Source: Catajapyx aquilonaris (Eukaryota). Taken from it: a stretch of 33,471 nt of DNA. The notes beneath the pieces were generated by a model. That model did not search any database, was not told where the DNA came from, and saw nothing but the letters and a program-made list of their open reading frames with translations. The stretch is taken from contig KZ539100.1 of the NCBI GenBank assembly GCA_000934665.2, positions 1 through 33,471 of the forward strand, read 5' to 3'. Position 1 is the stretch's first letter. Each line of letters starts with the position of its first letter. The position numbers and the translations under genes were made by a program. Below are positions 1-32,523 of this stretch, in pieces.

Positions 1-1014
1 GTTGTGACTCCAGAGGATGTGATGAACTGTGCATGGGGTAGCCCCCAGTGTTTCCTTTTTTAGTTGTGAATTTTTTTAAATAATGATTGGTATTTTTTGT
101 TTTTGTGGCTTAAAACTGAGCTTTGCTTGGAACTGATTGATTTTTTTCCTTTGGAATTCTTTTTTAAAATGCCTTGTGAACTTTCTGAACTCTTAAATTT
201 TTGTTTCACCTCTTTTTTTGAGTGTGTTTTGTGGCGAATACCCATCCTTTCTCCTCCCTAATCCCTTCCCCCCTCCCCTGTTAATCCTTTTGGGTCCTGA
301 TGTGTTGGTGTTGGCAAGTGCTCGACTTCTGTGACACACGGGTGTGGTGTTGGACAGTTTGGGACGACGCTGGGGTGACCTCGCCGCATGCCTGGCGGCC
401 ATGGTCTGGGCTACAGACGTGAGTTAGCTGGCGACCGAGACTGCCAGTGAGCTACGTAGAGGCGCCGGACATGGTGTCATGCGGGATGTACCAGGACGTT
501 GGTGCACCGCTGGCGTGGGGGCTGTCTGGATGCTGACCCGGCGTGAAGCAGTGGTTGAGAGAGGAGGTTGCAGCCCAGCGAAAGAACGAGACCATCCGGA
601 TGTGGACGGCTGGAGATGAACCGGCACTTTGGACGAACTGTTTTCCCTTTTACCCCCACCCCCCGCCACATCACATTGATTTTTTTTTTTTTTGTAATGT
701 TTGGTGAGTTCCTCCTGGTCACTCAAGCTAGTGTCCGGGGTGATGTGACAGAATTGTACTGCCCGCCTTGCTCTTCCCCGCCGGGAGAGGCACCACTTGC
801 CGGCGGCGGGGAGGGGGGAGGCGGGGGAGAGGGGGGAAGAGAGTCGAGTGTGAGCAGCCGAGTAGGGTGGACGCATAGAGGGTCGTCTCCCTGGTGAGTT
901 GCAATGAGTGCTGTACTCCTACCTGATTGGGCATTAAAGCAAAGCGTAACGAGGCAGTCTGTGTTCTGATTATGGAATCGGCATACAAGGTAACCTTTGA
1001 CCTCTGAGGTCACA
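1..1014 (+). mobile_element. 3' part of an LTR retrotransposon (internal tail plus 3' LTR), probably Gypsy/Ty3-type
   Basis: Ends in the LTR at 744-1014, preceded by a short purine-rich stretch (GGGGTGA) at the PPT position. The matching 5' LTR plus PBS is at 32226-32523. No recognisable pol ORF in 1-743. Confidence 0.65.
744..1014 (+). repeat. LTR (271 bp), 3' copy
   Basis: TGTGAC...GTCACA inverted termini; internal ATTAAA; followed by ACCT (1015-1018); differs from 32226-32503 by one substitution and a 7-bp indel. Confidence 0.92.
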
Positions 1015-3790
1015 ACCTGCCTTGTCAATGTTATTCCCAAGTGTGGGATACCAGTTTCCAACCGAATAAAAAAGCCCGCCTTTCTTTTAGGAAGACTAAA
1101 AAACTTTTTTATAAAGTAGTTCTGAATTTGTTCCATATAATGTCCATGTAACGAGTACCCCAGGTTGGAAAAGCGTATTGTGCAATGGGAATAACATGAC
1201 TCACATACAGCTTCTTTGCTAACATAATGTCACGTAACCGTAGTCTAACTAGGGTAGGCCAAAGAGCATTAATTGCTGCTATCGCTTTGGACTTTGTAGA
1301 TTCAGCCATCTTTACAAATTTGCCCGACGAGGAGAAAATCACCCCTAAATATTATTTGTACTGAGAAACAATTTCAAGTGGTTGATCAGCCACCTTGAAC
1401 ACCAGACCTCGTGGTAACCGACCCGCTTTTCTAAAAATCATCACTTTGGTTTTATTGATATTCAGTGTCAGGTGCATGTTGGAAAAGAAAGTTACAGTGG
1501 TCTCTAATGCCTTTTTCAAGTGTAGTGGATTGCTCGCCATTAAAACTATGTCGTCATCATAGGCTAAATAGTGTAGTACATCTGCCTGATTCGCTTCAAA
1601 ATTCACACCATGAGCTCCAGATTCAGTTAGAACTCCCCCGAGGCCTGCTATGTAAATATTAAACAGTACAGGCGAAAGAACCTCCCCCTGCAGTACTACT
1701 CCATTCCCCACATGTAAATGTATGTCCGGTTCGCCTAAGCCTGGAGTGATGCGGAACTTATTATAGTAAATGTCACGGACAATCGCAATAAATTGAGTGC
1801 TTATACCGCTCATTTGCATTGTTGCGTGGTTCACCGTGTCAAAGGCTTTTGATAGGTCTAGGAAAGCGGCGTATAGTTTCCCCTTCGGTGGGTTAATGTA
1901 ACGTTGGATAAACATATTCAGCGTGAAAATATGGTCTACACAGCCCCGACCCGGCCTGAAAGCAGCTTGGGAGTCCGTGAAAAGCCCAGTTTTTTCTATC
2001 CAACCTATCAAACGCTTTGCTAAGATATATGTAAAAAAGTTTCAACTTATTATTAACTAACGATATGGGCCTATAATTTACTGGATCATTCCGGTCACCA
2101 CTTTTGAAAATAGGGATCACCTTGGATTGGGTCCACTATTCCGGAACACTTGCTGATAACAAACTACTGTTAAATAAACCTATGCCTGGTTGCACCAACA
2201 AAATTACCGGTCCGATAGCTCCTAATGGACAGATAGGTAGACCTTTTAACATGTGCTATCGGTCCGTTAGGAGCTACCGGACCGGTAATTTTGTTGGTGC
2301 AACCAGGCACTAGGAGTGAGTCAAAAACATCCACCGTATCAATCCGTAAAAAGGCGTTTGGAACTAGATCAGGGCCAGCAGCCGAGCTGGTTTTAAGAGA
2401 GGTTAAGGCTTGCAATTATCCAACAGTGACACCACACAATGTACCAACTCAAAAGATGCAGGGCCATACGCCTTGCATTTATAAATCGACTTCAAGTTAT
2501 AGTAGCTCCACCATATCGGTTGGCTCAGGGCAACATTTAGTTTTTTTTCCCTATGTTTTTTAACTGTCCTCCAGAAGGTCAAATCGTTTGTGGTTAGCAG
2601 GGCCCTCAGCGGGACCGCGTAATATTTCCTCTTTTTTGCCGTCCTGCAGTTTCTATATGTACGGCGTTGCAACAGATATGCAGATAAAGTGTCGGTTTTT
2701 TTTTACTCCGCCAGTCCTTCAAAAGCCAGCAAGTGTCTTTGACCGTTGACTAATTCGTCATCGAACCAGGGGGCATATGACTGCCTGCTGTGCGCCACGG
2801 TAGTTGGCTTCCTTATCGAGACAAATCTAAATTCGGTTAGAATCTTGTGCGCACTTTGTTCAAAAAATTCCGCACCAGCTGTCAGTGACCTACTTGTTAT
2901 TACATCATACCATTTTTGTGCACAGATATGCGGTGCAAGAAAATTAAATCCTTCCTCCTACCAACATCCACCTGTCCGATTCAGGCAACATTGTCTCCAC
3001 AGGCACAGACAATGACGCAACTAGCGGAAGATGGTCTGATACTATTGAATTATGTATCGCAAAGTCCGTAACCACCGGGATCAACATGGCTGATACCGCA
3101 ATAAAATCCACCACACTTTGCCCTTGACCTTGCAGCCCCAAAAAGGTCAAATCACCCAGAGAATCCGCCGGAAGCGAACCATTTAGCAAAAACAAGAAAC
3201 TTTCTACACAGACGTTTATCAAGTGCTCTACCCCTAGAGTTTACCTTTACATCAGCTGACTTTCTCTCTTGCATTACACTGTTACAAATTGATAATTCTC
3301 TGGGGTGCGCAATCTGAGCATCACTTAACCTAGCATTAAAGTCAAAAATAATTAAATTCCCTTCACAATGATTATTACTGTCAACAATTCTGGTAATGGC
3401 TGCTGCCAGTTGGCCTTCGATGTCTCCGGTTGGGGTCAGGTAGACCAAAAACAGTATAGGGTTGACCCTACGTACTCCCGGGAGCAAGATTTTCACAGCT
3501 AAAAAAAAAAGTATCCGATGCTATCAATTGTGGAGAAAGCTCTTTCTGGACCCAAAGTAACAGACCCCCAGAGGGGCGGCCTCGCGTCTTCCTTCTCGAC
3601 GCAGTCACTTGAAACAATTCGCACTGCGACCAACTAAGCGATGGCTTCAAAACCACTGATAGCCATGTTTCCACCGCACCCAAAATGACACACAATCACC
3701 ACGAGGAGTGAAACTTTTAAACTCACGCCACACTATGCTCACTGGTAGGCTACTCCATGCACGTTCCAGCTTACCACACTCAAACATTGC
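1015..3790 (-). pseudogene. LINE ORF2 (AP endonuclease plus reverse transcriptase), frameshifted
   Basis: EN motifs SWNVHG, VETW, RGRPSGG, DFNAR, SVVDF, SDHLP. RT motifs GPDLVPN, IPIFKSGD..NYRPISL, QAAFRPGRGC.DHIF, FLDLSKAFDTV, LQGEVLSPVLFN, YDDD (degenerate YADD), KTKVMIF. Several stops and frameshifts. Confidence 0.93.
2183..2309. mobile_element. Foldback MITE (PIF/Harbinger-like) inserted in LINE ORF2
   Basis: About 55-bp near-perfect inverted arms (TGCCTGGTTGCACCAACAAAATTACCGGTCC...); 3-bp TSD CTA (2180-2182, 2310-2312); removing it restores the RT frame (DSLLGLFN...W..SKVIPIFK). Confidence 0.85.
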
Positions 3791-3952
3791 GATTTTCGTG
3801 CTGCTGGGGCGGGTGTCCCACGTTGTCTCAGTTGACCATCGGCGGGGTGGCTTCCTCCGGGTCTGCCTGGCTGAGGGACTGGGGCTGGTGGGCCGTTACA
3901 GCTTACAGGATTTGCTGTTGCACACTTGGGGTTCTTCGTATTGGTTTGACCA

Positions 3953-4724
3953 TCAAGGGGCGACCTGGCCGCGGCATATATCACTCTTCGTTGAGAAACG
4001 TGGCTGACCTTCAAGACGGGGCTGACCGGCTGGGCGAAGTTCCTCCAGCAAGGCTGCAGCTGGTTTACCGCCCGTTTGCCGAAGCCCCGTACCAGCTGCA
4101 TCAAGGTCAAATGTCGCACCGTCAATCTTCAGGCCGGCCAGTTGCAATAAGGAGGCCCGGTATCCCTTGTCCCTGGCTAAGTGCAGGTACGGCATCAGTT
4201 TTGATCTCCTGGCTCTGGTTAGCTGCGAGAAGTCCACGCGAAAGGTCGATCCTTTTAATAGTCTGCCATTCGAGATTACCTCCTGCTTGTCTTTGAATCG
4301 CAAAAATTTTGCAATCACCGGACGCGATCCCGTGTCCCGACCTAATCGGTGCACACGATCAAATTCAATGCGTGCCGGATCCTTGTGCAACTTAATTAAA
4401 CTCTGCCACAAAACTGATGCGCACTCGGTACTCCGATTCGGACCATGTATGCACCGGGTTTGTCCTCCAATCCAAAAAGTAGCAAGTTGTTGCGGCGTGA
4501 CTGGTCTTGAAGATATATGTTAGTTGATCAGTTAAATCTCGGACCCGAGTGTCCGTTTCGGCCAGTTGGGCTTCCACCCACGAAACCCTGTTGTTGGTTG
4601 TCACGAGATCGTCCTTCAGTGTGTCAAAACGCTCTTCCAGCTTGACCGTAACCTGGTCCAGCTTTGTATGTAAGCTGGATTCCATCTTCGCCAGTAGCTC
4701 GCGAATGTCCTGAATTGACGCCAT
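3953..4724 (-). pseudogene. LINE ORF1 (coiled coil plus L1-type RRM/CTD), frameshifted
   Basis: ATG at 4724 (MASIQDIRELLAKMESSL..., heptad-like); downstream frame has IEFDRVHRLG..RPVIAKF..KDKQEV...LKGS...DFS..TR..R..L, typical of L1/Transposase_22-like ORF1. Confidence 0.85.
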
Positions 4725-4802
4725 TTTACCGCCTCCGTTATCACGGCTAGCAGGAGCAAGAACGACACGTGTTGTCTGCTCAAGGGTTGGGCTGCGTGTG
4801 GC

Positions 4803-4852
4803 TGACAATAGTGTGTGACAATAGTGTGTGACAATAGTGTGTGACAATAGTG
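4803..4852. repeat. 13-bp tandem repeat (TGACAATAGTGTG, about 3.8 copies) at the LINE 5' end
   Basis: Read directly. Confidence 0.9.
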
Positions 4853-6412
4853 CATGAAACAGACAGGTGTTGAGGTGTAGGCCTGGGTGTAGGTGCTGGT
4901 ATACTACCTGTAGCGTTCGAAGCGCAGTGCTTGAGAAGTTGTAGTTCCTTCCTCGGGTCCTGAGAAAGGAACGGGCAATTCTGTGGAACATGCGACCTGG
5001 GGTGACACCCTCCATCGGAATCAGTAGGTTCCGGACCTGGCGGAGGGTCACGTTCCCAGACCTGGAACAATTTATAGTTAGTATAATGGTATAATTATGG
5101 GTGGAATTTGTGTCCCACTACTGGTTATTGTTAACTGAGCAGTACCAGTGCCAACACTGGCACTGCTAAGTTAGCAGCAACTATAGCAGTGGGATCACCC
5201 AATGTCTTTTGGTCCATCACTTTGCTTGAACATAACACATACCGGAAGAAAAAGAGCGGCAGACGGACCCGCCTTGCGGGACAGATAGGAGCGGGGGCGG
5301 GGGGCGCAGGCGGGGCTGGAGCCACAGTAGGACGAGGAGCTCCCAAGGACACGGGCAGGAGAATGAAGGCACTGGTTTTCGATGGAGGGGATTCCCCGCT
5401 GATTGAATGACGCGCGATGATTGGCCCCACAGCATCCCAGCATGGAGACCACGATAGTCATGACCTCGGGGAGGGCAACACTATTTTTTTTACGTCGCAA
5501 ATGCTATTATGATATTGTGTGCCTCAGCAGCAGCTAATGTGATTCCCAGCGTTACAGCATGTCAGAGACAGTAGCATATATTTTGATATTTCCTGCATTT
5601 GTTATATGATGACAATGATTCCGTGCACCGCCTTACCAGCATGCGGTTGAAAATTCGCCGATCAAATATTATCGCTCACGCGTAAAGAATGGCTTATGCA
5701 TTTCTGAATAAGGGATGATCAAAGGTATCTATTGACTTACCAAAAGTCAAATTCGGTCCAGTAGTCCTACCTGGAGAAATTGGAGCTCGAAAATCGCCCA
5801 AATGCGGTGGTGATCCATATTTTAGGTTTTTTAATTATTATTTATTTCCAACCCTGCGTGACCTATCACAATGAAGTTTTGCATTTAGGCAAAGGTGATT
5901 GGCCTATACATCCTAATCCTAAATATCACTTTGTTGAAATCATAATGCTATGACGAGGTGCGGCTATCGGGAATATACAGGGTGGCCGGTAAATGGCGCA
6001 CAAGCTTCAGCTAGCGAGATTCCTTGTGAAACACCCGTATAATTATGGAAGTGTAGGTCATATTGCTCTCCGAGGCCTGGTTAGGGCTCATGAGACCTCC
6101 AAAGCCCTGAGACGAGCGGTGTGGGTTCCGGAAACTCGCAGATATAGGAAGCTCCTTGCCTTTTTATAAAATACCCTTACTTACTTGGTCCATGTATTCG
6201 TCACCCGCCAAAGGGAAGGGGCAATAAGTGGGGGGCAAGAGTGCGGTTTGTCTGTATAGATTCGGTTTCATGGGCCTCGAGAGTGTTCCTGTGGCATATA
6301 GTATAACTGCAAGCTGCACTGCACACCTAACCAATAGAGAATTGTTTGTAATGGAATCAATATACTTGCACAGTCCTCACAGGAAGACATTGAAGGTTAC
6401 ACTCAACACAAG

Positions 6413-6418
6413 TTTATT
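6413..6418 (-). terminator. Probable poly(A) signal of ZNF gene A
   Basis: AATAAA on the minus strand about 200 nt after the stop; conserved in gene C (17398-17403). Confidence 0.55.
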
Positions 6419-6619
6419 GTCCATCCTTGCTCTGGTGAGCTCGGATTACAAGTGGCCCCTCCTGGGCCCATCTTCCTCTCCACCCGATGAAAGGGATGAG
6501 GGAGGGAAATGGTCCGACCCAACCCCCATGGGGTATGGGACGTCACAGTTTATGTTCCTATGCACTGTTCCTTGTGAATTCTCAACTTACATAAATTACG
6601 AAATTTTGTCTGGCACATA

Positions 6620-7291
6620 TCACAAGTTTTCTCTCGTATGAATTCGCATGTGAACCTTCAATTTACTTGAATCACTAAATTTTTTCTGGCACACCTCACA
6701 AGTGAATGGTTTTTCTCCTGTATGCATTCGCATGTGCTTTTTCAAATGACTCGAATCAGTAAATTTTTTCTGGCACACCTCACAAGTGAATGGTTTTTCT
6801 CCTGTATGAATGCGCATGTGCTTTTTCAAATCACCTGGATAATTAAATTTTTTCTGGCACACCTCACAAGTGAATGGTTTTTCTCCTGTATGAGTGCGCA
6901 TGTGAATTTTCAATTCACTTGGATAATTAAATTTTTTCTGGCACACCTCACAAGTGAATGGTTTTTCTCCTGTATGAGTGCGCATGTGAATTTTCAAATC
7001 ACTTGGATAATGAAATTTTTTCTGGCAGACCTCACAAGTAAATGCCCCCTTGACTGAATGAATTCGATTGTGAGACATCAGCTGCTTTGAATCAGAAAAT
7101 TCTATCTGGCAAATATGGCAATAAGTGCTTTTACTATGAATCATCATGTGCAATTTCAAATCATGCTGGGTGCCAAAAGGTTTCTGACACATTCTGCACT
7201 GAAATGGATTATTTCTACCGCATATTCCTCTGCTCCTTTCCTCTTGCATCCCACTCTCTTCAACTCCATCTTCACTTGTCACATGCAGGAC
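6620..7291 (-). CDS. ZNF gene A, finger exon (7 C2H2 fingers); spliced protein about 311 aa
   Basis: Acceptor TTTCAG|GTC at 7292/7291, phase 0; CxxC..HxxxH repeats with TGEKPF linkers; joins exon 9892-10155 in frame. Confidence 0.92.
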   Translation of the reverse strand, partial: VLHVTSEDGVEESGMQEERSRGICGRNNPFQCRMCQKPFGTQHDLKLHMMIHSKSTYCHICQIEFSDSKQLMSHNRIHSVKGAFTCEVCQKKFHYPSDLKIHMRTHTGEKPFTCEVCQKKFNYPSELKIHMRTHTGEKPFTCEVCQKKFNYPGDLKKHMRIHTGEKPFTCEVCQKKFTDSSHLKKHMRMHTGEKPFTCEVCQKKFSDSSKLKVHMRIHTRENL

Positions 7292-7319
7292 CTGAAATGT
7301 AAATGACAGGACATTAATT

Positions 7320-7700
7320 TCTATTAAGAAGTATGGAAAGTGTGAAGCTTTCAACCTGATTTTGGCATTTGGAAGACATTCCTTCTTATGAAAGCTCAAG
7401 GGATTGTCTCAGAGATCCTCTCATTGTAGAGACGGATGCAAGGAGAGATGCACTATCAGCTCTGCACTCCTCAAGGACAAGGGGTTTACGGGGATATTCT
7501 TCACTCTAGGTCACAATATCACACCCGAGACAATATCTTCCTGTCCACCCAGGAGCTTAAGGTGAGAATAACAACTGCCATAAGTGCTGAACCAGACGTA
7601 CCAGCACTGCCCGCTGTGCAATAAACCAGCTCCAAATAGGACTATGCCCATCCACAAAAAAGGAGATCCAAATGACCCTAAGAATTACCTAATCACTCAC
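7320..7700. mobile_element. Old LINE remnant in the gene A intron
   Basis: PIHKKGDPNDPKNY (RT motif, + strand); homologous to 19050-19400 in gene C and weakly to about 13630-13720 in gene B. Confidence 0.6.
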
Positions 7701-8021
7701 GTGGTGATTTGCCAATCTTGTTTTGTCCCTTCTCCCTCCCGCCTTTTTCTAGTCAAGTTCTTAACATGGTTTTATTTTTGGCTTCACATAGATAAAAGAA
7801 TTGCAGGTGTAATTAGCCAAAGAGGCCTTACCACCTGTGGGCAACAAACCAACGATGTCCGGCTCCCAGATCCATACAGTCTGGGGCCGGGGCATACGAA
7901 ACGTTCCAAGTCAATATTGTCCCAAGGAAGAACCGGAGCCGAAGCCCCAGGCCCCCGGAACCAGCATTAGCCCAAGCCCCCCTGGGCCGGCTTCACATAC
8001 TGCAATTCAATGTCATGTGGC

Positions 8022-8296
8022 CAGGCGCGGATCCAGGGGGGNNNNNNNNNNNNNNNNNNNNNNNNNNNNNNNNNNNNNNNNNNNNNNNNNNNNNNNNNNN
8101 NNNNNNNNNNNNNNNNNNNNNNNNNNNNNNNNNNNNNNNNNNNNNNNNNNNNNNNNNNNNNNNNNNNNNNNNNNNNNNNNNNNNNNNNNNNNNNNNNNNN
8201 NNNNNNNNNNNNNNNNNNNNNNNNNNNNNNNNNNNNNNNNNNNNNNNNNNNNNNNNNNCCCCCCCCCCCCTGAAAACATTTCTGGATCTGCGTCTG
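8022..8296. mobile_element. hAT-type non-autonomous element spanning the assembly gap
   Basis: TIR CAGGCGCGGATCCAG / CTGGATCTGCGTCTG; 8-bp TSD CATGTGGC (8014-8021, 8297-8304). Confidence 0.85.
8042..8258. other. Assembly gap (N run) flanked by G and C homopolymers
   Basis: Run of n characters. Confidence 0.99.
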
Positions 8297-8387
8297 CATG
8301 TGGCACATGCTTTAGCCTAACGAATAAGTTTGTTATAATGAACACAAGAAATGAGCAGGATGTACTGGATCCCTTTATTTATCATAT

Positions 8388-9171
8388 TGTCAGACATGGA
8401 ACAAGAATCCAGCCTCATTTGCGAGGCGTGGGACGGTTTTATTACAAAGACGCAATAAGTACGGGGTCATTCCTTTATTCCTGGAATAATAAGTCTCATT
8501 TCGTAAGCGTGGGATAGAATTGGTACCGAGACGCAAAAGAGTGAAGACACTCTTTTATTCCTGGGAAAGTATCCCACTATCATTGTGGAGAATGACTTGC
8601 CAACAAAAGTACCTGCGTCTAAGGAAGGTGAGCCACGTCAGAAAGCGTAAATAACATGAAGCAGTATAGGCTCACCCTTCCAATGACGAACAAAGCACTG
8701 TCAGCCACCTCCTGACCTTTGCGACTCATGCGATCTAATTCCGACCTTTGGGTGACTTTCCGACAGGAAAGGGTTTGGCGGGCGATGCACTAATACTTCG
8801 GAGAAATGCCATCCAGGAGGGGATATAAAAAGGGGTGGTCTATCTGACCAGAGACTGACTGAGACAGAGAGAGCTTGGCAGAGAGAGTTCCACCAACAGC
8901 CCAGATCAACGTAGATCTACCGTACAAGATGATTGGCATCAAGGGGCGTGAGTATAAGTCCTAACAGGACCCCCTGTTGTCTCCCCTCCAGTGTCTGTTG
9001 CTGTTTGTTGATCGTTCGTTCCCTGAATAAAAATATGTTTCATGTGGAAAACGAAGTGCGGTGTCTTTCTCCTGATCTCCCCTGCTTGACCAACTCGACT
9101 GAGTATTCCGGCACCGAAAGATCTGCCGAATTACGACCCTATTTTGCCGCTAAACTGGCGACAATCTGACA
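8388..9171 (+). mobile_element. Solo LTR (784 bp) in the gene A intron, antisense to the gene
   Basis: TGTCAGA...TCTGACA termini; 4-bp TSD ATAT (8384-8387, 9172-9175); TATA-like GATATAAAA near 8822; AATAAA near 9026. Confidence 0.88.
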
Positions 9172-9891
9172 ATATAAGATGTTTTTCTCCCCGAGTATGG
9201 GCGTCTTACGGACTCCGTTAAACACTGACACAAATTACCTGAAGATGCATGGAATGATGATAATTATTATCTTCTACTGCATATGAAGAACTACATAAAG
9301 TGGAAAGCCGCGTTTGCCCCTATCTGTTGCGGTTGAGACCCTGATACCTGTCAACAGACGGGCAGACAGAGCCATTCTAAGAGACTTTTTTTTTTTTTTT
9401 TCGATGATGATAAAAGTCTAAAGAGGGAAGAGCAAGAGGATGCACTATATTGAGCGCGCCGGATCTGACATCGCTCATATCTCGAAAATGGCTGCGAAGC
9501 GTGGGTTTTTACGTTCACCAGTGAATTCTACGCATGTGATTTACCCTCTGACCGATTTTTGTCCAAATCCTTCATATGGCTACATAGGGAGTTGTGGGGG
9601 CCTGGTCTGGGCTAAAGGCATACAACAAGCAGAAGACATTGTGAATCCATGGTAAAATGATGATCCATACTCTCTTACGGGGAAAAAAAAAACACTTGAA
9701 TGTGATCAAATAGGCAAATATCATGCAGATGTTGGAAGGGGAACAATTTACATCAATAAGTGGCTGAACAGGCAGAGCTGGAGGGTGGGTACTCCCACAA
9801 TATCTTTTCCATGCCTATGTGTTTGATTAGGATTGATGATTTGTTGTCGCTTCTGGGTAAAATTATACTGCAATTTCAGCAGATGGCTTAC

Positions 9892-10155
9892 CCCACTATT
9901 CCCTCCAGATCCAAGACCCAAAGGGTCATCTTCATCATCACCCTCCCTGGGCATGTCCACCACCATCTCCTCCTCCGCTTCCTCCTTCTTGACCTCAAGG
10001 AGAGTGTCTTCCATGAGCGCAGTAGACTCACTGTCCAGCCATGGTGGTGGTGCTTCCTCCTCCTTCACCCTTAGCCTCCAACTCTCCTCATCCACTGTGA
10101 TGTCCTCCTCCTCCTTCACTTCCTCCTCCTTCTTTATCTTCAGGATGAAAGACAT
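9892..10155 (-). CDS. ZNF gene A, first coding exon (88 aa acidic N-terminal domain)
   Basis: TTTGCAG|GGCC-ATG start context; MSFILKIKKEEEVKEEEDITVDEESWRLRVKEE...DDPL; donor GG|GTAAGC at 9891; 264 nt, phase 0; upstream UTR-intron donor GTGAGT at 10311. Confidence 0.88.
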
Positions 10156-10491
10156 GGCCCTGCAAACACAAGAAGTGGAGGTCATGGAGTCAAGGAGTAT
10201 TCCAATCAAGGCAACAATACTGAAGATGAGGAACATTATTCCTCTGAGAAGTGTGGGCAAAGGGAAGCAAACCAGATCAGTTCCATCCCCACCACTACAA
10301 CTTCAACTCACCCTTCTTCTTCCCTCCAGAGTGCCAATTGATGCGTGGACGAGAGGGGAAGGGGGAAGAAGAGTCCCTCCCCCGTCTGGGGTTCCAATGG
10401 AATCCAGGGGACTGTGAGACGGGTTCAAACAGAGTTCCTATTCACACGAAAAGAAGAAGAAGAAGATAGAATCGTCAGGACAGAATATTCT

Positions 10492-10625
10492 TCAGGCGGC
10501 CATCTTTTTTATGCAAATGAGGGTGCGTTCCTACCCCCACACCTGGTCGGAAGGACGGGATTAGACGCTATTGCTACTTCCCAAGTCGCCGCTACTGGTG
10601 AGGCTGCTATGCGCTAATAGCTCTT
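10492..10625 (-). promoter_or_regulatory. Conserved promoter/5' cassette of gene A
   Basis: GCGGCCATCTT (YY1/Pho-like), ATGCAAAT, GAGGGTGCGTTC, GGAAGG, CGCTATT and GCCGCTACT blocks repeated upstream of the paralogues. Confidence 0.7.
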
Positions 10626-10888
10626 CTCGGAACATAATCATTACACTTTCTCACTTTTGTTAAAGAAAGGTTCCGATGTTCCGATTTAACTCAAAGAATT
10701 CTGGAATCGATCCTCATAAAGTGTCCCTTCTGAGAATAGTATTCCACGAGCCACTCCATAAATTAATAATGTCTAGGCTACTTCCTGAAATAAAATAAGG
10801 AACTTCAATAATGAGAGGGTTTGGTATTTTGTGAATTTCTTTGTGGTTCATGGAGAGAATTTATTGCCATCAAACATTATGCACAACC

Positions 10889-10891
<3 letters not shown>

Positions 10892-10923
<32 letters not shown>
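10892..10923. repeat. (CT)n microsatellite
   Basis: Read directly. Confidence 0.95.
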
Positions 10924-10927
<4 letters not shown>

Positions 10928-11495
10928 ACTGGTTTTTAAAGAATGCAACATTAAAAATTTCTTCACACATATTGTCGTCAACTAGTTCACATTCTAAGGT
11001 CGTTTTCGAGGGGGCGGATTCTGATTTTTTTTTTTTCCCCATGAGCCAACAAATAGTCTGTGAGGATGGGCAGAGTTGTTTCCCCTAAATGTAACGTATT
11101 TGATGTAACTCTGCCTACTGCTGCAAGTGGTTTGCATTATTATTTTGTACAACTTTTTTACAAGGAATTCCGCACAATAATGCAAGGTGACTCTAAAGTC
11201 AGGTTTCACAGGTAAGTAGCAGCAGAGCCCGTTCTTCGCATGGCCTATTTCCATGGTGATCACACCAACACAATCCCGTCGCCACGGGCAAACAAAAAAC
11301 AAAGAAACTTTGCCTTGCGTAGATTTTGAAAATTTATAGCAGCAAACCCGTGTGTAGTGTCGGGTGTTGAACTTGGTATCAGCCAATGTGTCACGCAGAA
11401 GTGATTGAAAGCGGAGGGAGAATATTATCAAGTACAGTACCAAATACAGTTTTACGCCGTTCGATTGTATGCCGGTTTGAAAATAACATTTTTAA

Positions 11496-12012
11496 CCCTG
11501 TAACCGTGCCATGGGGTCTTTTTGGACCCCAAGGAAAAAATGCATGTAAATGATAATTACAATGAACGTCTGCCATTTTTTTTACAGTATGACCGAAGCA
11601 GGTTGGCATAGTGGATAAAAGGCGTCCGACTGCTAATCGGGAGGTCCTGGGTTCGAATCCCAGGGCAGGCAACCTTGGCCGTGGTTTTCTGTGGTTTTCC
11701 ACGGTCTTTCTACGATAATTCCGGGGTCGCTTCCATACAATAGGCCACAGTCCCTTCCTTTCCTATCCTTGGAGGTTGAATGGCAAATGCTGGGCCAACC
11801 TCCTTAAAAATATCAATTAAAGTATATAACAGGAAGTGCAGGTTTATTTTGAATTAGTGATCCTTTTAGGCATTGTTCAAAGAATGATTGTATATAGTCA
11901 ATACATTGAAAATTATTATATAAGAATTAATTGAAATAAAAATATGGTGGGGTCCGAAAAGACCCCACGGCACAGTTGCCGTAATACTCGTAGGTACGGC
12001 ACGGTTCCAGGG
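11496..12012. mobile_element. piggyBac-type non-autonomous element
   Basis: TTAA on both sides; TIR CCCTGTAACCGTGCC / GGCACGGTTCCAGGG (14/15); asymmetric subterminal inverted repeat GGGGTCTTTTTGGACCCC / GGGGTCCGAAAAGACCCC. Confidence 0.88.
11594..11812 (+). mobile_element. tRNA-derived SINE nested in the piggyBac MITE
   Basis: A box TGGCATAGTGG (11604-11614); anticodon-like stem-loop TCCGA-CTGCTAA-TCGGG; T arm CTGGG-TTCGAAT-CCCAG (B box); no acceptor stem; SINE-like body GGTTTTCTGTGGTTTTCC...AGGCCAC..CTTCC; ends approximate. Confidence 0.8.
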
Positions 12013-12359
12013 TTAAATTTAAAAATTGTGAAAAGCATGACCATAACAACACAATCTGAACATAAGCACAACACTTCAACACTTTTGAGTCCAACCCGCA
12101 CGAACATGAAATAATCATATTTTTTGTCTTTCGTGGTGGCTTATTGTGGCGGGGTCTATCGATAAATACAGTGCCGCATTGTTGGTCCTCATCGGAACGC
12201 TCCAAAGCCTGTTAAATGCCATGTCCAGAGCACGAAAATCATGATCCATCGCAATGATCAATATTACAAATTATGACAGCCTGGTTGTGAAACTGCCAAG
12301 AAAGATTTCATGTATACTTTGCTCAAGCCAGGCTGATAATAATGCCTACGGTAAAAGCC

Positions 12360-20495: not shown

Positions 20496-20768
20496 ACCAC
20501 TACTTCCAGAACCTCCCGCTAAAGGGTCGTCCACATCTTCAACCACCCTAGGGATGGCCACCACCATCTCCTCCTCCTCCTCCTCCGCTTCCTCCTTCTT
20601 GACCTCACAAAGGGTGTCTTCCACGAGCGCAGTACACTCATTGTCCAGCCATGGCGATGGTGCTTCCTCCTCCTCCTTCACCCTCAGCCTCCAACTCTCC
20701 TCGTCCACTGTGATGTCCTCCTCCTCCTTCACTTCCTCCTCCTTCTTTATCTTCAGGATGAAAGACAT
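20496..20768 (-). CDS. ZNF gene C, first coding exon (91 aa acidic domain)
   Basis: TTTGCAG|GGCC-ATG; donor GT|GTAAGT at 20495; phase 0; UTR-intron donor GTGAGT at 20937. Confidence 0.88.
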
Positions 20769-21140
20769 GGCCCTGCAAACACAAAGAGTGGAGGTCATGT
20801 ATAGTCACGTCAAGTGTTGCATCCCCAATCACGGTGGCTGAAGAGGAGGGAGGGACACTCTCTCTCCCAGAGAAGTGTGTGGGCAAAGAGATGCAAACCA
20901 GATGAGTCCATCCCTTTCCCTCCCGATCCCCACTCACCCTTCCCTCTTCTTCCTTCAGACTTCAACTCGCCCTTCCTCCTCCTCTAGTGTGCCAACCAAC
21001 GATGTGTGGACGAGAGGGGAAGTGGGAAGAGTCCCTCCCCCGTCTGGGGTTCCAATGGAATCCAGGGGACAGTGAGACGGGTTCAAACAGAGTTACATTC
21101 ACCCGAAAGAAGAAGAGAGAGAATCGGGACAGAATAAAGT

Positions 21141-23137: not shown

Positions 23138-23965
23138 TCATGCGTGAATTCGCATGTGGTCTTTCAAATGATTTGAATAACGAAATTTCTTCTGGCAGAC
23201 CTCACAAGTATAGGGTTTCTCTCCTGTATGAATTCGATTGTGCTTTTTCAAGTTACTTGAATGAGTAAATTTTTTCTGGCAGACCTCACAAGCAAATGGT
23301 TTTTCTCCTGTATGAACTCTAATGTGGGTTTTTAATGCACCTGGTTTACGAAATTTTTTCTGGCACACCTCACAAGTAAAGGATTTATATCCTGCATGAA
23401 TTCGCTTGTGCCATTGCAATGTATCTGAAGCACGAAATTTTTTCTGGCACACCTCACAAGTAAATGGTTTTTCTCCAGTATGAATTCGCAAGTGGACCTT
23501 CAAATTACCTAAATTAGTAAACTTTTTCTGGCACACCTCACAAGTGAATGGTTTTTCTCCTGTATGAATCCACTTGTGCTTTTTTAAATTACATGAATCA
23601 CGGAATTTTTTCTCGCACACCTCACAAGTAAAGGGATTATCTCCTGTATGAATTCGCACGTGCTTTTTCAATGTACCTAAATCATTAAAAATTTTCTGGC
23701 ACACCTCACAAATAAATGCCAGCTTGACTGGATGAATTCTGTTGTGAGACTTCAGCTGAGTCGAATCATCAAATTTTATCTGGCAAATATGGCAATAAGT
23801 GCTTTTACTATGAATCATCATGTGCAATTTCAAGTCATGCTGCGTGCCAAAAGGTTTCTGGCATATTCTGCACTGAAATGGATTATTTCTACGGCATATT
23901 CCTCTGCTCCTTTCCTCTTGCATCTCACTCTCTGCTACTCCATCTTCACTTGTCACATGCAGGAC
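23138..23965 (-). CDS. ZNF gene D, finger exon (9 C2H2 fingers); spliced protein about 364 aa
   Basis: Acceptor TTTCAG|GTC at 23966/23965, phase 0; open array. Confidence 0.92.
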   Translation of the reverse strand, partial: VLHVTSEDGVAESEMQEERSRGICRRNNPFQCRICQKPFGTQHDLKLHMMIHSKSTYCHICQIKFDDSTQLKSHNRIHPVKLAFICEVCQKIFNDLGTLKKHVRIHTGDNPFTCEVCEKKFRDSCNLKKHKWIHTGEKPFTCEVCQKKFTNLGNLKVHLRIHTGEKPFTCEVCQKKFRASDTLQWHKRIHAGYKSFTCEVCQKKFRKPGALKTHIRVHTGEKPFACEVCQKKFTHSSNLKKHNRIHTGEKPYTCEVCQKKFRYSNHLKDHMRIHA

Positions 23966-24189
23966 CTGAAATGTAAATGACAGAACATTAATAGCTACCC
24001 CCTGGCAAAAATTCACGACTGGCGTTTCGGGAGGTACCTGGGTATCAGGTTCCTGCGGTCCCGGGAATTGCTCAGCTGAGCCCTCACGGTCACGCAGACC
24101 AAACAAAATGACAGAGATCTGAACCACTGACTGTAAGTGTACTTGTCTCCCACCCAGACTCAAGACTTGTTATTTAGACTGTATGGTAT

Positions 24190-26718: not shown

Positions 26719-26985
26719 ACCACTACTTCCAGAACCTCCCGCTAAAGGGTCGTCTTCATCTTCTTCCACCTTTGGCATGTCCACCACCATCTCTTCCTCC
26801 TCCCCTCCTTCCTCCTCCTTGATCTCGAGGAGAGTGTCTTCCACGACAGTAGAGTCACTGTCCAGCCATGGTGGTGGTGCTTCCTCCTCCTCCTTCACCC
26901 TCAGCCTCCAACTCTCCTCGTCCACTGTGATGTCCTCCTCCTCCTTCACTTCCCCTTCCTTCTTTATCCTCAGGATCAAAGACAT
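26719..26985 (-). CDS. ZNF gene D, first coding exon (89 aa acidic domain)
   Basis: TTTGCAG|GGCC-ATG; donor GT|GTAAGT at 26718; phase 0; UTR-intron donor GTGAGT at 27158. Confidence 0.88.
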
Positions 26986-27341
26986 GGCCCTGCAAACACA
27001 CAAGAGGGGAGGTCATGTATAGCCATGTCATGGGTAGTATCTCCCCTAATCAAGGCAGCTGAAGAGGAGAGAGGGACACTTTCTCTCCCAGAGAAGTGTG
27101 CGGGCAAAGTGAAGCAAACCAGATGGGTCCATCCCTTTCCCTCCCGATCCCCACTCACCCTTCCCTCTTCTTCCTTCAGACTTCCAACTCGCCATTCCTC
27201 CTCCTCTACAGTGCCAATTGATGCGTGGACGAGAGGGGAAGGCGGAAGAGTACCTCACCCCTCTCCCTCTGGGGTTCCAATGGAATCCAGTGACTGTGAG
27301 ACGGGTTCAAACGGAGTTCCATTCACACGAAAAGGAGAGAA

Positions 27342-28050: not shown

Positions 28051-29046
28051 TTATTTGCTGGATTTGGGTGGCCTGTCTTTAGCATGCACTACCTTGATAT
28101 GCTGCTTGATATTTGGTCTGCCTGCAAATCTTTTCCCGCAAACGTCACAAGCGTAAGGCCTCTCCCCGGTGTGCTTCTGCCGAATGTGGGCCTCTACTTC
28201 ACTCTTGCAGCTGAAAGCTTTATCACATTGGGGGCATTTGACCAGTTCAATCTTATGTCTCCTCCTGTGATAGTAAAGAGCATATCTGGACGTGAAGCAT
28301 TTCCCACATTCTGTGCATACATGAGATTCATCTTCCACATGTACAAACTTGTGCTTTTTCAAATAACTCGCCATACGAAAAGCCTTACCACACACGTCAC
28401 ATTCAAAGGGCCATTCCCTAGCAGCGTGAGTAGAACCATGTCTTACCAAATTACTCTTCGTAGTGAATGCCATGTCACATACAGTGCACCTGAACCGTTT
28501 CTCTGGGCCTGCCTTCGTATGTCTAATCAAGTGACTCTTGAGGCTTACCTCGTCCTCAAAAGTGGAGGAGCAGAATTGGCATTTTAGTAGTTGCGCCTGC
28601 CCAACATGAATCAATTTCTTCTGACGTTTCAAGTTCTCCGTAGATTTATATCTACTGTTGCAAACGTCCCTAGCAATGGTTTTCTCTTTCACATGTGTAC
28701 TTGCATGCCTCTTTAAGTTATAGTTGCATCTAAATGCCTTGTCACACACTCTGCAAACATGATTTCGCCGGTGCACTTTTGCATGTGCCAATAATGTGTT
28801 TCTACTTCTGAAGGACTTGTCACATCTGGTGCACTTGTGGGGCCTCTCTACAGGATGAGATTTCTTGTGCCGGCTCAGAGACCTCAAAGTCTTGCATATC
28901 TTGCCACAAAGGTCACAAGGGAAAGTTTTTTCTACAGTTTGGGCGCATGCGTGGGCTCTGGCCTTCCTTTCCTCATTAAAAACCACTCCGCAGACTGGGC
29001 AAGGGAAAGGAGTCTGCGCCTTTGTGCTCTCTTGATCTGCATTTGC
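28051..29046 (-). CDS. ZNF gene E, finger exon (about 10 diverse fingers, the first C2HC-like, plus 1 degenerate finger); spliced protein about 457 aa
   Basis: Acceptor AATAG|GCA at 29047/29046, in frame with ORF 28051-28986; non-homogenised fingers (CDLC, CTRC, CRVC, CQFC, CTVC, CDVC, CTEC, CPQC). Confidence 0.88.
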   Translation of the reverse strand, partial: ANADQESTKAQTPFPCPVCGVVFNEERKARAHACAQTVEKTFPCDLCGKICKTLRSLSRHKKSHPVERPHKCTRCDKSFRSRNTLLAHAKVHRRNHVCRVCDKAFRCNYNLKRHASTHVKEKTIARDVCNSRYKSTENLKRQKKLIHVGQAQLLKCQFCSSTFEDEVSLKSHLIRHTKAGPEKRFRCTVCDMAFTTKSNLVRHGSTHAAREWPFECDVCGKAFRMASYLKKHKFVHVEDESHVCTECGKCFTSRYALYYHRRRHKIELVKCPQCDKAFSCKSEVEAHIRQKHTGERPYACDVCGKRFAGRPNIKQHIKVVHAKDRPPKSSK

Positions 29047-29135
29047 CTATTTTTTTATATAAAAAAACAGCATTACATTTATAAAAAGCCAAGTGATCTT
29101 GTCACCACAGCTGCTTTCAAAGCTACATGACCCAC

Positions 29136-29324
29136 CTTTTCCTTCTCCAGACCCTCATCTGAATGGTTCTGCTTCGTCATCCTGAAACGCTTCAGAATTT
29201 CCGTCGTGCTAGGACCTCGGACTGCATCCGACTCTGGTTTGACACTGACTGTCAGGATCAGGCCACTGTCCGCAGCCGAGCTTTCACCTGCACACTCTGC
29301 CTCCTCCTTGTTCGACATGGACGG
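29136..29324 (-). CDS. ZNF gene E, middle coding exon (63 aa)
   Basis: Acceptor TTTCAG|CCG at 29325/29324; donor AAG|GTGGGT at 29135; phase 0 on both sides; contains VKPE. Confidence 0.78.
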
Positions 29325-29602
29325 CTGAAATGAAACACACACAGTTAATAATCAGGAATGAAATCAGCAGCTGATGCCACCTCACGTTCTCTCATGCACC
29401 TTACAGGCACCTCCATAATCTCTATTGATATCAAATGCAAAGTTGGTTTCTTTGTCCAAGTTTGCTCACCCTGGCAACAGGTGTCATTTGAATCAGCAAT
29501 GGTTGATTGATTGTTGATTATTATGTGACACCATGGAAACAGGCCTGTGTGAAGAGAGGGTTGCGTTTCTGGTTAATCAACAGAGATATTCCGCATGCTT
29601 AC

Positions 29603-29791
29603 CGCAGCCACACTGCCGTCGTCTTCCTCCGTTCCCACACCGTCATTAGCCCCCGAAGCATATCTTTCAAAGAAGCCAGGGTCCTCCTCCAGGCAGGAAG
29701 GCGTCTCCTCCTTGATCCGCAGGAGCCAAGTCTCCTCCGTCGTGATCTCCTCGTCCTCATCCTCCGCCGCTTCCTTCTTGATGGTCGGCAT
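29603..29791 (-). CDS. ZNF gene E, first coding exon (63 aa acidic domain)
   Basis: MPTIKKEAAEDEDEEITTEETWLLRIKEE, homologous to A-D exon 1; donor CG|GTAAGC at 29602; phase 0. Confidence 0.8.
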
Positions 29792-29969
29792 CGAAGACAA
29801 TGTCCTGAAGCGCCAGCTACACTTATTGCGGGGTTTGAATTCACCGAATGCGGTCCTCTTTGTGTTCCGCAGGCCGACGAACGCCAGTGTGGTCCTCGCC
29901 AAATCAGTGCGAATCAGAGAAATCAGCAGGCGAAACGAGAAGCGAAAGAGAGAGAGAGAGAGAGAGAGC

Positions 29970-30100
29970 TCAGAAGGACGCCATCTTGGATTTGGAGAGG
30001 GTGCATTCGGACGCCTGCCTCGAAAAGAAGAACCGATCGGACACTGGGAAGGTGAATAGCCGCTATTGAATGTAACTGCTACCTCCAATCACTGCTACTC
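29970..30100 (-). promoter_or_regulatory. Diverged promoter cassette of gene E, next to a (GA)n tract at about 29947-29968
   Basis: Retains CGCCATCTT, GAGGGTGCATTC, GGAAGG, CGCTATT and GCTAC blocks in the same order. Confidence 0.62.
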
Positions 30101-31496
30101 GCTGATGTGTAGCAAAATGTAATGAACTTTTATTGCGATTACTCTCGCCAGTTCGGAAAATAATATTCTGTTAATTTAAAAAAATCATGTTACTCCATCC
30201 TATTAGTTACAATGTACATGTTGTTACCATTGAAATAACTTGCTAAGATTTCCGGCTTTGGTTTTTGTTACTCCCCGTTTGTGCGGCTACCACATTATAT
30301 ACTCTTATTAGTGAGAAGAGTGTCCGGATGGTCATGGGGCTTCCCTTGGTAATCTAACACGTTGGCCATGTGAAGCTTTGTCATAAGAGTGTTCAGATTG
30401 TCATGAAATGATTTGATGCGGGAAAAAGGTCATAACAATAATAACTGCAATAGGACAGGCAACAATAAAGGCCGTCTCCTACTGGAACTCTTCTCATCCA
30501 GTGTCTCCCCCAGATCCCCACAGATCAAAGAATGAATTTTCTTGCATATTATAATGGCCTTTATTTGCTTGAATTCATATAATAAGTTAATATTAAAGTT
30601 AAATATTAAAGAACAAAAACTTCAGTGTGTTACAATAATGAACAAAGTACTTGTACAATGGGTATTAAATTAAAAAATCATCCCGTCTCAACAAGAATTT
30701 ACCCGCACAAAGAGTTTTACCCCATTGTTTTGCTTTTAACTATTCCGACGAGGTGTCAATATAAAGAACAACACCAGGAACAGCACAAGATTCGAAAAAC
30801 TTGCCTCGGAGCAGGTGGAGGAGGAGGCGCTTTGCATCATTGACCAACCACCAGCCAATGGCACCTTTTCCCCAGCTTTGCAGTATTACATAGGAGCATC
30901 ATGGGACCAGGCTGCCATGTATGGTTCCACGGAACTCTGAAATCACAAGCACCAGATAATGCACATTGTTGAACTTGACACTACATCAGACAAACCCTAT
31001 ACTCATCAATAGTGAAAACAGGCCAAACCTTATGGGCGGTGCTTTCAGCCAAATGAGCCAAATCTCAACTGTGCAAACCAAATGATAAAAATGCAAATGC
31101 TCCTTGTCAGCATGCAACAATGAATATTGTGTGTAGACTAATGTACGGAAAATGAGACAATGATCTGACGTCTTCGGTTCTTCCATTGTTGCCTTTTTGT
31201 TCACACCGTTTACTCATATTATTTGCTCTGCGAGAGTATTCGTCTCGCATTTTCCGTACATTATAGCTGGTGCATTTGCAACATTGCCAGAAGGTTTCCT
31301 GCCTGTGTTGATGTTTTACTAGAAAATTGCTTTCAGGTATAGACGAAGAGCAATGGTGTCACAGGGATTCAATGACAATAGTATATTGTTAGTTCCATTT
31401 GTTGACATTGTTACCTCACAACTATTCTCTGGCTGATGATTATGATAACTGAGCAGCGAGCAATGATGGTGCGCAAACTACAGGCTGACAATAGCG

Positions 31497-32225
31497 TTTA
31501 TTTATTTGTACCCCGGCTTTAGGGTTAAGACTAACCCTTTAAGGGGGACACCGCAACCAAAAATACAGTCATTACATACACTTTTTTTGACAACCGAATA
31601 TTCAATCATTATATACATTTTTTTTGACATTCACAGAAAAAATCATGCATATCTACTATCAGTCTCTTTGGGGGGTTGTTGAAAACAAAAGCTATAGTCT
31701 GTCAGGCGGCATACGGGGTAAATCTACCAGGTATTGAGAGCGGGGAGTACCAAAAAAAAAAAACGGACAATCAAAAAGTAGATGAAAGAGGTCCAATTCG
31801 GAGGTCGTGTTGCACCACACACATGGTTCACCGTCAAATGAGAACTTATAGTTTTGAGACCAAAGAACTTTTGGTAAACCACGCAATCGAATCCATGTGC
31901 GCAGCGGGTTTAGTGGGAGATTATAAGACCAATAAACATCCGGGTGGTTTAGAGATTTGGCTGCGTAGTATGGGGCATAGGAAATAGAATTGGCCAAAAA
32001 TTCCTCGTCTTGCTTGGCGTAAAACTCTGTCAGGTAGGTGAGCGCCTCACTCGGGTTAGAGTTAAGCATTTGAGTATAGATACCTGGGGGTAACAACTTA
32101 TTGACATCCCTGCACCAATCAATTGAGACAGATCTTTGAACTGGTTGTGCCTTCGCGTATCCATACGCTGCAACCAATTAAGAGTTTGTTAATGTGTGGA
32201 TTTACAAGCTTCTGATTAATCACCT
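31497..32225 (-). mobile_element. 3' portion of the same LINE: ORF2 C-terminus with CCHC knuckle, 3' UTR and (TAAA)n tail
   Basis: CVWC......FHLLFDCP; (TAAA)n tail at 31497-31507; joins the 1015+ half in frame across the TSD ACCT. Confidence 0.88.
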
Positions 32226-32503
32226 TGTGACAGAATTGTACTGCCCGCCTTGCTCTTCCCCGCCGGGAGAGGCACCACTTGCCGGCGGCGGGGAGGGGGG
32301 AGGCGGGGGAGAGGGGGGAAGAGAGTCCGGAGTCGAGTGTGAGCAGCCGAGTAGGGTGGACGCATAGAGGGTCGTCTCCCTGGTGAGTTGCAATGAGTGC
32401 TGTACTCCTACCTGATTGGGCATTAAAGCAAAGCGTAACGAGGCAGTCTGTGTTCTGATTATGGAATCGGCATACAAGGTAACCTTTGACCTCGGAGGTC
32501 ACA
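32226..32503 (+). repeat. LTR (278 bp), 5' copy
   Basis: TGTGAC...GTCACA; preceded by ACCT (32222-32225); followed by a PBS. Confidence 0.93.
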
Positions 32504-32505
32504 AG

Positions 32506-32523
32506 TGGCGCCTAGCGTGGGGC
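32506..32523 (+). promoter_or_regulatory. Primer-binding site, tRNA-Lys(CTT)-like
   Basis: TGGCGCCTAGCGTGGGGC, 2 nt after the LTR; 16/18 match to the classical Lys1,2 PBS TGGCGCCCAACGTGGGGC. Confidence 0.85.

Follow-up and report, generated by a model that had tools for sequence, protein, structure and literature searches.

The two ends of this locus raise the question of how the halves of a single transposable-element (TE) composite came to lie on opposite sides of a gene cluster. By comparing the ends of the window (the whole stretch of DNA analysed, 33,471 nt), we found that a composite LINE/LTR locus appears circularly permuted around five C2H2 zinc-finger (ZNF) genes, with its two insertion junctions ~31.5 kb apart and in swapped order.

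The zinc-finger array

The following ZNF features were placed between the junctions:

6573–10614, minus strand: ZNF1, with a finger ORF at 6623–7408 (Pfam zf-C2H2 and paralog alignments) and the N gap within an intron
9573–10614, minus strand: ZNF1 5′ block with the acidic first coding exon (D20 repeat with an ATG and an acidic run)
12521–13582, minus strand: ZNF2 finger ORF (Pfam zf-C2H2, 10 stretches)
17597–19138, minus strand: ZNF3 finger ORF (Pfam zf-C2H2, 14 stretches)
23141–24169, minus strand: ZNF4 finger ORF (Pfam zf-C2H2, 8 stretches)
28054–29046, minus strand: ZNF5 finger ORF (Pfam zf-C2H2, 7 stretches), diverged

The five minus-strand ORFs form a tandem C2H2 cluster with 7–14 zf-C2H2 stretches each and a periodicity of 84 bp. 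Their units are ~5–6 kb long, TE-rich and arranged head-to-tail with 66–87% identity; self-blast gave no DNA-level match of ZNF5 to ZNF1–4. Neither KRAB, ZAD nor any other Pfam family was found as an N-terminal domain of the ZNF genes. The LINE occupies a spacer of this array.

One LTR retroelement inserted into one LINE

The composite was resolved into these parts:

1–743, plus strand: LTR retroelement interior, 3′ portion, directly 5′ of the 3′ LTR; non-coding in view, multi-copy
744–1014, plus strand: 3′ LTR (TG...CA), aligning with 32226–32503
1015–1018: left copy of the ACCT target-site duplication, directly after the left LTR on its outer side
1019–5480, minus strand: LINE 5′ part (RVT_1 match, tblastn of ORF2 homologs), degenerate; its 5′ end near 5480 is approximate
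2183–2309: hairpin repeat inserted in the LINE, 127 bp, whose 54-nt arms are 94% complementary; further copies occur in the genome
31554–32221, minus strand: LINE 3′ part, with the ORF2 C-terminus, its Cys/His knuckle and the 3′ region; its 3′ end is approximate
31554–31646: 37-bp tandem repeat in the LINE 3′ region
32222–32225: right copy of the ACCT target-site duplication, directly before the right LTR on its outer side
32226–32503, plus strand: 5′ LTR, aligning with the left LTR
32504–33471, plus strand: LTR retroelement interior, 5′ portion, with no coding sequence in view and a terminal palindrome at 33390–33470
32506–32522, plus strand: PBS-like site (TGGCGCC...), 2 nt past the 5′ LTR, as read from the sequence

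The initial annotation had read the left end as 3′ LTR, ACCT and LINE 5′ half, and the right end as LINE 3′ half, ACCT and 5′ LTR; the LTR alignment, the ACCT positions and the collinear LINE parts confirmed this. Alignment of 744–1015 with 32226–32504 (272 and 279 nt) gave 1 substitution and one 7-bp indel, the same figures as reported before, and blastn identity of the pair was 97.1% over 279 columns. Both LTR copies start with TGTGACAG and end with GGTCACA. The right LTR is followed by AG and then by TGGCGCCTAGCGTGGGG, which resembles a primer-binding site. ARAGORN detected no tRNA genes for this putative PBS, and Rfam gave only a tRNA-like stretch within a high-copy repeat. The left LTR is preceded only by the short purine run GGGGTGA, which makes for a weak candidate PPT. 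The visible interior of the element, 743 and 967 bases, gave no Pfam match, gag and pol included, and translations of the 967-base part look non-coding; what remains of the element lies beyond the window, and the element may be autonomous or non-autonomous. Contig depth in short-read assemblies (see below) was ~4–5x that of unique pieces in bin 1–667 and ~14x in bin 668–1334, which holds the 3′ LTR.

In the LINE, Pfam RVT_1 (PF00078) matched 1355–2041 of the minus strand (E 5e-22). Homologs of the LINE RT numbered 245 proteins at E ≤ 0.001; among the matches listed, many carried RVT_1 and Exo_endo_phos domains. An endonuclease-like region at ~3686–2968 was identified through tblastn of homologs with PF03372 or PF14529 (E 1e-10 to 3e-4), with no Pfam match in the ORFs there. 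A protein search with an ORF1-like frame at 4395–5117 (minus strand) retained 0 of 253 candidates at E ≤ 1e-5. The hairpin repeat falls in bin 2002–2668, where contig depth was 2000–3000.

Full-length arthropod LINE ORF2 homologs proved collinear on both LINE parts by tblastn: residues up to ~882–999 stop at the left junction, and C-terminal residues match 32015–31707 of the minus strand (best E 1.6e-5). For the three homologs worked through (P0004, P0011 and P0035) the two halves do not overlap and abut within 11–13 residues. The left frame ends in ...LTRQ at codon 1019–1017 with two bases over, and the right frame starts at 32220 (INQKLVNPHINKL...) with one base over, so that together these bases supply the V codon cited in the initial annotation. 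The continuous ORF2 proposed there for the joined halves held for ~105 codons around the junction and broke down beyond, with in-frame stop codons beginning at 1354 and 1111 and frame shifts near 1130–1229 and 32120–32177.

Both junctions thus go back to a single insertion of an LTR retroelement into a single LINE. The earlier proposal of a single event is supported by the LTR identity, the ACCT on both sides, the matching frame and the collinear LINE halves; a joint match of a 4-mer (1 in 256), a reading frame, collinear halves and near-identical LTRs far exceeds chance. The retroelement entered the ORF2 of a ~5.1-kb LINE in antisense, giving the 4-bp ACCT duplication, and the host LINE either was decaying by that time or has decayed since. 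The outer flanks of the LINE, whose ends are approximate, shared only chance-level 9–11-mers when searched for a target-site duplication of the LINE's own, and self-blast found no paralog of 5500–6369 or 29100–31700 within the window that could represent an empty LINE site in a paralogous unit.

In TE and segmental-duplication analysis, nested insertions that share a target-site duplication serve as standard markers of duplicated DNA. Here too, an LTR element within a LINE, an identical 4-bp duplication and a shared break point mark both ends as one event. Usually two complete copies are compared, whereas here each end holds half of the composite.

Contig depth and the join across the gap

Short-read contigs from four sequencing runs were compared with positions 1–20000. 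All four runs derive from one sample in one study and may be the window's own source data, and hence do not give independent evidence. Of the 8 unique contigs listed, 7 had a depth of 93–128 when summed over the runs and the other had 184; contig depth is not in itself a copy number. In the contigs of the four runs, the LINE 5′ part had no further copy at 95–99.9% identity, and its depth did not exceed the depth of the ZNF spacers. One contig spanned its stretch 2285–4509 without any difference and at the lowest depth, and in every run bins 2669–4002 had just a single contig over them. Variant contigs at 1428–1942 indicate close relatives of the LINE RT region in the genome.

These data bear on several accounts of the swapped order. 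Two independent insertions of the same LTR family, at the same ACCT site in two LINE copies flanking the cluster, might have arisen through target-site preference. The family is indeed multi-copy and young, its LTR is ~14x deeper than unique pieces, and the RT region has its close relatives. This account nevertheless requires the same 4-bp site together with complementary, non-overlapping LINE parts, and it is at odds with the lack of a second LINE 5′ copy at ≥95% and with the single contig per run over 2669–4002. To our knowledge no site-specific behaviour is recorded for this LTR element, and we regard such a coincidence as very improbable. The missing second LINE 5′ copy and the unraised depth speak against a duplication confined to the TE composite, and likewise against an older, diverged duplicate. 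These two observations leave a near-identical, collapsed duplication of the whole unit, or a false join in the scaffold.

The window probably represents a short-read scaffold in full, since both of its ends lie inside a multi-copy LTR element and the right end in a palindrome. Because the scaffold ends inside that element, the locus looks circularly permuted: contig A (1–8041) would lead over the N gap to contig B (8259–33471), on to the LTR element and back to A. The two window ends do not overlap so as to close a circle (longest common word 11 nt). Inference of the permuted order needs one join, over a gap among repeats, to be right. The join involves the following features:

8042–8258: N gap of 217 N, the sole scaffold join in the window
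8023–9447: segment bypassed by a contig joint (8022 to 9448), containing the gap and an LTR-like low-copy repeat

The two readings left, a collapsed near-identical duplication of the whole unit and a false join at the single gap, are each an ordinary, known kind of event. Collapsed repeats and false joins are known from short-read assemblies (PMC7852129; bioRxiv 10.1101/2020.05.22.110833). The present scaffold is of this kind in having a multi-copy TE at both ends and one N gap in repeats; its ends represent the two sides of one locus, so that it closes into a ring.

Our preferred reading, to which we tentatively assign a probability of about 0.45, is that a unit of at least 33.5 kb was duplicated in tandem and that the assembly collapsed the near-identical copies. 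After the LTR insertion, the five ZNF genes and the LINE/LTR composite would have been duplicated together, likely by unequal exchange within the ZNF array, and so recently that the assembler merged both copies into one. A collapsed tandem repeat in a short-read assembly appears as a permuted cycle. This is in essence the tandem duplication proposed in the initial annotation, except that the reciprocal junctions expected there outside the window would not exist as separate sequence in the assembly. Uniform depth across the unique contigs fits such an all-or-none duplication. It would also allow a copy-neutral rearrangement or a reintegrated circle (the latter already suggested in the initial annotation), with breaks in the LTR element and the ZNF1 intron, since no extra copies are then demanded. 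However, three breakpoints would have to rebuild a regular ZNF unit across the gap by chance, no such junction was seen, and the scheme is far less parsimonious than unequal exchange; we hold it to be highly unlikely.

A collapsed duplication presupposes a genuine gap join, and several observations favour one. The ZNF1 finger exon (6573–7669) and its 5′ block (9573–10614) lie on opposite sides of the gap, with a D17-to-D18 spacing of 2711 against 2685 and 2864 in other units and 1585 in unit 3. Both sides rank their paralogs alike (ZNF3 86.1%/79.8%, ZNF4 83.1%/75.7%, ZNF2 76.4%/66.5%). Under mild penalties the 60-nt gap flanks form an imperfect inverted repeat, with a score reached by 4 of 2000 shuffles and 23 of 3000 random window pairs; with strict gap penalties, no long inverted repeat across the gap rose above shuffles. 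No further copies of the gap-flank motifs were found within the window. A contig joint linking 8022 to 9448 was seen in three of the four runs and was missing in one (X1); both of its 22-mers are unique in the window. Gene-model collinearity, a common nearest paralog, inverted-repeat flanks and this weak joint thus speak for the join. Against the collapsed duplication, the shorter side of the joint has only 22 letters, below the bridge threshold of 31, and X1 does not show the joint. The window moreover holds only one period with no second copy seen, and two copies need an entry and an exit branch point, where the gap is the sole internal break.

The gap also sits among repeats. To its left, 7806–7988 is high-copy (bin depth ~3000–6500), with loose ends at 7804/7806 and 7988 in all four runs. 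On its right, the dominant contig over 8364–8704 differs from the window at 7 sites (within 8395–8578), and 8728–9234 has 1.6x the usual depth. These surroundings tell against the collapsed duplication and in favour of a scaffolding artefact without any macro-duplication, in which the true order would be 8259–33471, LTR element, 1–8041, with one LINE, one nested insertion and a longer ZNF array. The right end of contig A would have been wrongly tied to the left end of contig B over a repeat-rich intron, its real neighbour being a paralogous intron of close similarity. There is no join other than the gap, and none of the contigs listed from the four runs spans it; by the variant sites in the low-copy LTR-like repeat and the 1.6x depth, the left end of contig B has a second copy somewhere. 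LINE stretch 2285–4509 behaves as if from a single-copy locus, the multi-copy LTR element and the palindrome are typical scaffold stops, and no event need be so recent as to leave 2.2 kb without differences. Yet a random mis-join would rarely link the two contigs flanking the same insertion, nor would it be expected to leave the same nearest paralog and paralog order on both sides. Flanking the gap are the two arms of a single inverted repeat, neither of them high-copy; the 8022-to-9448 joint ties window-unique sequences in an intron part absent from the window paralogs, and the 217-N estimate suggests spanning read pairs. We consider a false join a serious possibility, if somewhat doubtful.

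An extension of the collapsed duplication, which we think unlikely, is ongoing amplification, with an array of at least three near-identical ~35-kb units, perhaps polymorphic in the population, one boundary of which would since have gained the 1.4-kb segment 8023–9447. This would account for the coexistence of the 8022-to-9448 form and the gapped form, and for the window variant of 8364–8704 having only ~1/3 of unit depth in two runs (X3 and X4).

Block-wise growth of zinc-finger clusters

The accepted view is that ZNF clusters such as tetrapod KRAB-ZNF and fish FiNZ-ZNF arrays grow in blocks through unequal exchange. The window shares with them head-to-tail C2H2 genes, the 84-bp finger periodicity and TE richness. 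It differs in that its genes have an acidic first coding exon and lack a KRAB, ZAD or other Pfam N-terminal domain, and in that block duplication is here deduced from one permuted TE marker on one scaffold.

Should the join be false, the scaffold needs re-ordering and ZNF1, which as drawn spans the gap, would combine two genes into a chimera. Under either reading the nested insertion provides a convenient marker of the locus. If the tandem duplication is real, the locus would offer a dated case of block-wise growth, by five genes at once, in an arthropod-type zinc-finger cluster; the process is well documented for vertebrate ZNF clusters and would be no surprise to a specialist. If amplification is ongoing, the nested LTR/LINE marker would time the block-wise expansion of a lineage-specific ZNF family in progress.

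A LINE split by one LTR element

A reverse transcriptase domain (RVT_1) was matched on the minus strand at 1355-2041 by Pfam (E 5e-22), and a protein search returned arthropod sequences as the best LINE homologs. Full-length LINE ORF2 proteins aligned collinearly to both halves in tblastn, with the N-terminal and reverse transcriptase residues of the homologs at 3686-1011, stopping at the left junction, and their C-terminal residues at 32015-31707 (best E 1.6e-5). For the three homologs P0004, P0011 and P0035, the junction residue predicted from the left half differed by 11–13 from that predicted from the right half, without overlap. The reading frames were compatible: the left half closes at codon 1019-1017 with two spare bases, and the right half opens at 32220 with one.

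Alignment of the LTR pair (744-1015 and 32226-32504) showed one substitution and one 7-bp indel, and both copies have the termini TGTGACAG...GGTCACA. The motif ACCT lies at 1015-1018, after the left LTR, and at 32222-32225, before the right LTR; a primer-binding-like site of the TGG type begins 2 nt past the latter. Given the LTR identity, the ACCT motifs, the collinear LINE halves and the fitting frames, a single LTR element was therefore certainly inserted, once and in antisense orientation, into a single LINE roughly 5.1 kb long. This bears out the initial annotation, which had traced both junctions to a single insertion. As a reading of the locus, independent insertions at the same site have a very low probability. 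The same annotation described a continuous ORF2; the frames do match across the junction, but the LINE overall is broken by in-frame stop codons that begin at 1354 and 1111, by frame shifts and by a hairpin repeat. This 127-bp repeat is inserted at 2183-2309, just upstream of the reverse transcriptase domain, and has 54-nt arms (94% complementary) and a 19-nt loop; its bin depth of 2000–3000 points to a MITE-like family with some 80 copies.

In the reverse transcriptase region (1428-1942), the contigs listed at about 10 variant sites depart from the window sequence, two of the differences being 3-bp deletions, and their depth is roughly double that of the LINE 5' part. They are close, 5'-truncated relatives of the split LINE elsewhere in the genome. 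Contig depth over the LTR element was about 4–5 times that of unique pieces, and over its LTR about 14 times. An exact 24-bp tandem repeat is present at 32635-32683, and a near-perfect palindrome (40-nt arms, 1-nt loop) occupies 33390-33470, at the right end of the window; it is either part of the leader of the LTR element or a fold-back artefact at the contig end.

The zinc-finger cluster and its permuted flanks

Pfam matches showed that five minus-strand ORFs in the 33,471-base window carry C2H2 finger arrays (ZNF1 to ZNF5, numbered from left to right).

Zinc-finger ORFs (Pfam C2H2) and conserved gene starts (sequence likeness)
6623-7408, minus strand, ZNF1 finger ORF
12521-13582, minus strand, ZNF2 finger ORF
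17597-19138, minus strand, ZNF3 finger ORF
23141-24169, minus strand, ZNF4 finger ORF
28054-29046, minus strand, ZNF5 finger ORF
10103-10194, minus strand, conserved ZNF start cassette
16329-16420, minus strand, conserved ZNF start cassette
20716-20807, minus strand, conserved ZNF start cassette
26933-27024, minus strand, conserved ZNF start cassette

ZNF1 to ZNF4 form units of about 5–6 kb with a mutual similarity of 66–87%, each comprising a finger exon and, 0.8–2.7 kb upstream, a 5' block in which an ATG is followed by an acidic run. No Pfam domain was matched in the N-terminal frames of the ZNF genes. The conserved gene start, on the minus strand, consists of an acceptor-like site, the ATG and a Glu/Lys-rich run (MSFILKIKKEEE...). 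The contig depth at 11340-12006 was ~48,000–72,000, against ~20–40 for unique pieces; this block contains a tRNA-like stretch at 11604-11663 on the plus strand, matched by the tRNA family of Rfam at 35.4 bits but not called as a tRNA gene by ARAGORN, and resembles a tRNA-derived SINE of very high copy number. A second extremely high-copy block lies in the ZNF2 intron (14675-16008, bin depths of 16,000–87,000 in the four runs), and the ZNF3 intron holds a piece of another LINE reverse transcriptase (19335-19676, plus strand; tblastn E 1e-5 to 3e-4).

Read on the minus strand, the order is LTR-element interior, LINE 3' part, ZNF5 to ZNF1, LINE 5' part and LTR-element interior. The order expected for a single split LINE is 5' part, LTR element, 3' part, and the window is therefore a circular permutation of the locus. 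A copy-neutral rearrangement or a reintegrated circle would be a most improbable explanation of this order. The window comprises contigs A (1-8041) and B (8259-33471), linked by its sole run of N (8042-8258). The window demands a second copy of the LINE/LTR composite only if it faithfully represents a single stretch of chromosome; with the order B, LTR element, A, no duplication whatever is needed. The window ends fall 743 and 967 bases inside the LTR element, and no overlap was found between them. Because both ends lie within a multi-copy element, the right end carries a palindrome and the ends do not overlap, the window is probably the entire scaffold.

The join across the gap

A false join at the gap, the real order being B, LTR element, A, is a plausible reading that we would rank second. 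Against it, the gap sits in an intron of a complete-looking ZNF1, the paralog ranking is the same on both sides (ZNF3 86.1%/79.8%, ZNF4 83.1%/75.7%, ZNF2 76.4%/66.5%), and the across-gap spacing of 2711 is similar to that of two of the three other units. Chance linking of precisely the two contigs that flank one insertion would also be unlikely, barring close paralogs. The 60-nt gap flanks, which likewise speak for the join, form an imperfect inverted repeat, its arms terminating in a G run and a C run, with a score reached by 4/2000 shuffles and 23/3000 random pairs; this fits a palindrome that halted the assembler. Contigs of three runs (X2, X3 and X4) join 8022 to 9448, in intron sequence not common to the paralogs in the window, and the 22-mer on each side is unique in the window. 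However, the shorter side of this joint is 22 letters, below the 31 set as the threshold for a bridge, X1 does not have it, and no contig among those listed for the four runs crosses the gap. The stretch skipped by these contigs (8023-9447) may be an insertion polymorphism.

Repeats beside the gap favor a false join. To its left lies a high-copy repeat, 7806-7988, and each of the four runs shows loose ends at 7804/7806 and 7988. To its right, the dominant contig over 8364-8704 departs from the window at seven sites (within 8395-8578), and depth over 8728-9234 is 1.6 times the usual value; this stretch therefore has another copy elsewhere, which could have caused the scaffolder to err. An LTR-like low-copy repeat with a TATA-like motif, AATAAA and a TGGCGAC... 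site spans 8259-9450.

Copy number and the duplication reading

Depth was taken from short-read contigs of four runs of one sample, compared with 1-20000; these runs may be the very data from which the assembly was built. Summed depths of the eight unique contigs listed were 93, 105, 184, 124, 109, 110, 128 and 121. The LINE 5' part (2285-4509) was covered by one contig, with zero differences in all four runs and the lowest depth, and no other contig was found in bins 2669-4002 in these runs. Neither a second copy of the LINE 5' part at 95–99.9% identity nor extra depth on the composite was found among the contigs of the four runs, which argues against a composite-only duplication or an older, diverged duplicate. 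Everything here is either present in at least two near-identical copies or all single-copy; contig depth itself is no copy number.

The reading we favor, at a probability of about 45%, is that the whole unit of at least 33.5 kb was duplicated in tandem very recently and that the assembler collapsed the copies. Such an event would have to be recent enough for 2.2 kb of decaying LINE to remain identical, which is uncommon and counts toward a false join; weak evidence on the gap join tips the balance slightly toward duplication. Probability beyond the four readings is unaccounted for. Of the macro-duplication proposed initially, the junctions of one insertion and the permuted order thus stand, and the duplication itself can be put forward only tentatively.

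If the whole unit was duplicated and its copies were collapsed, the reciprocal junctions predicted by the initial annotation would be absent from the assembly as separate sequence. Growth of ZNF clusters through tandem and block duplication, nested transposable element insertions that serve to mark duplications, and short-read assemblies with ring-like or misjoined scaffolds are all familiar. On our analysis, the locus is an instance of these known kinds and not a new mechanism.
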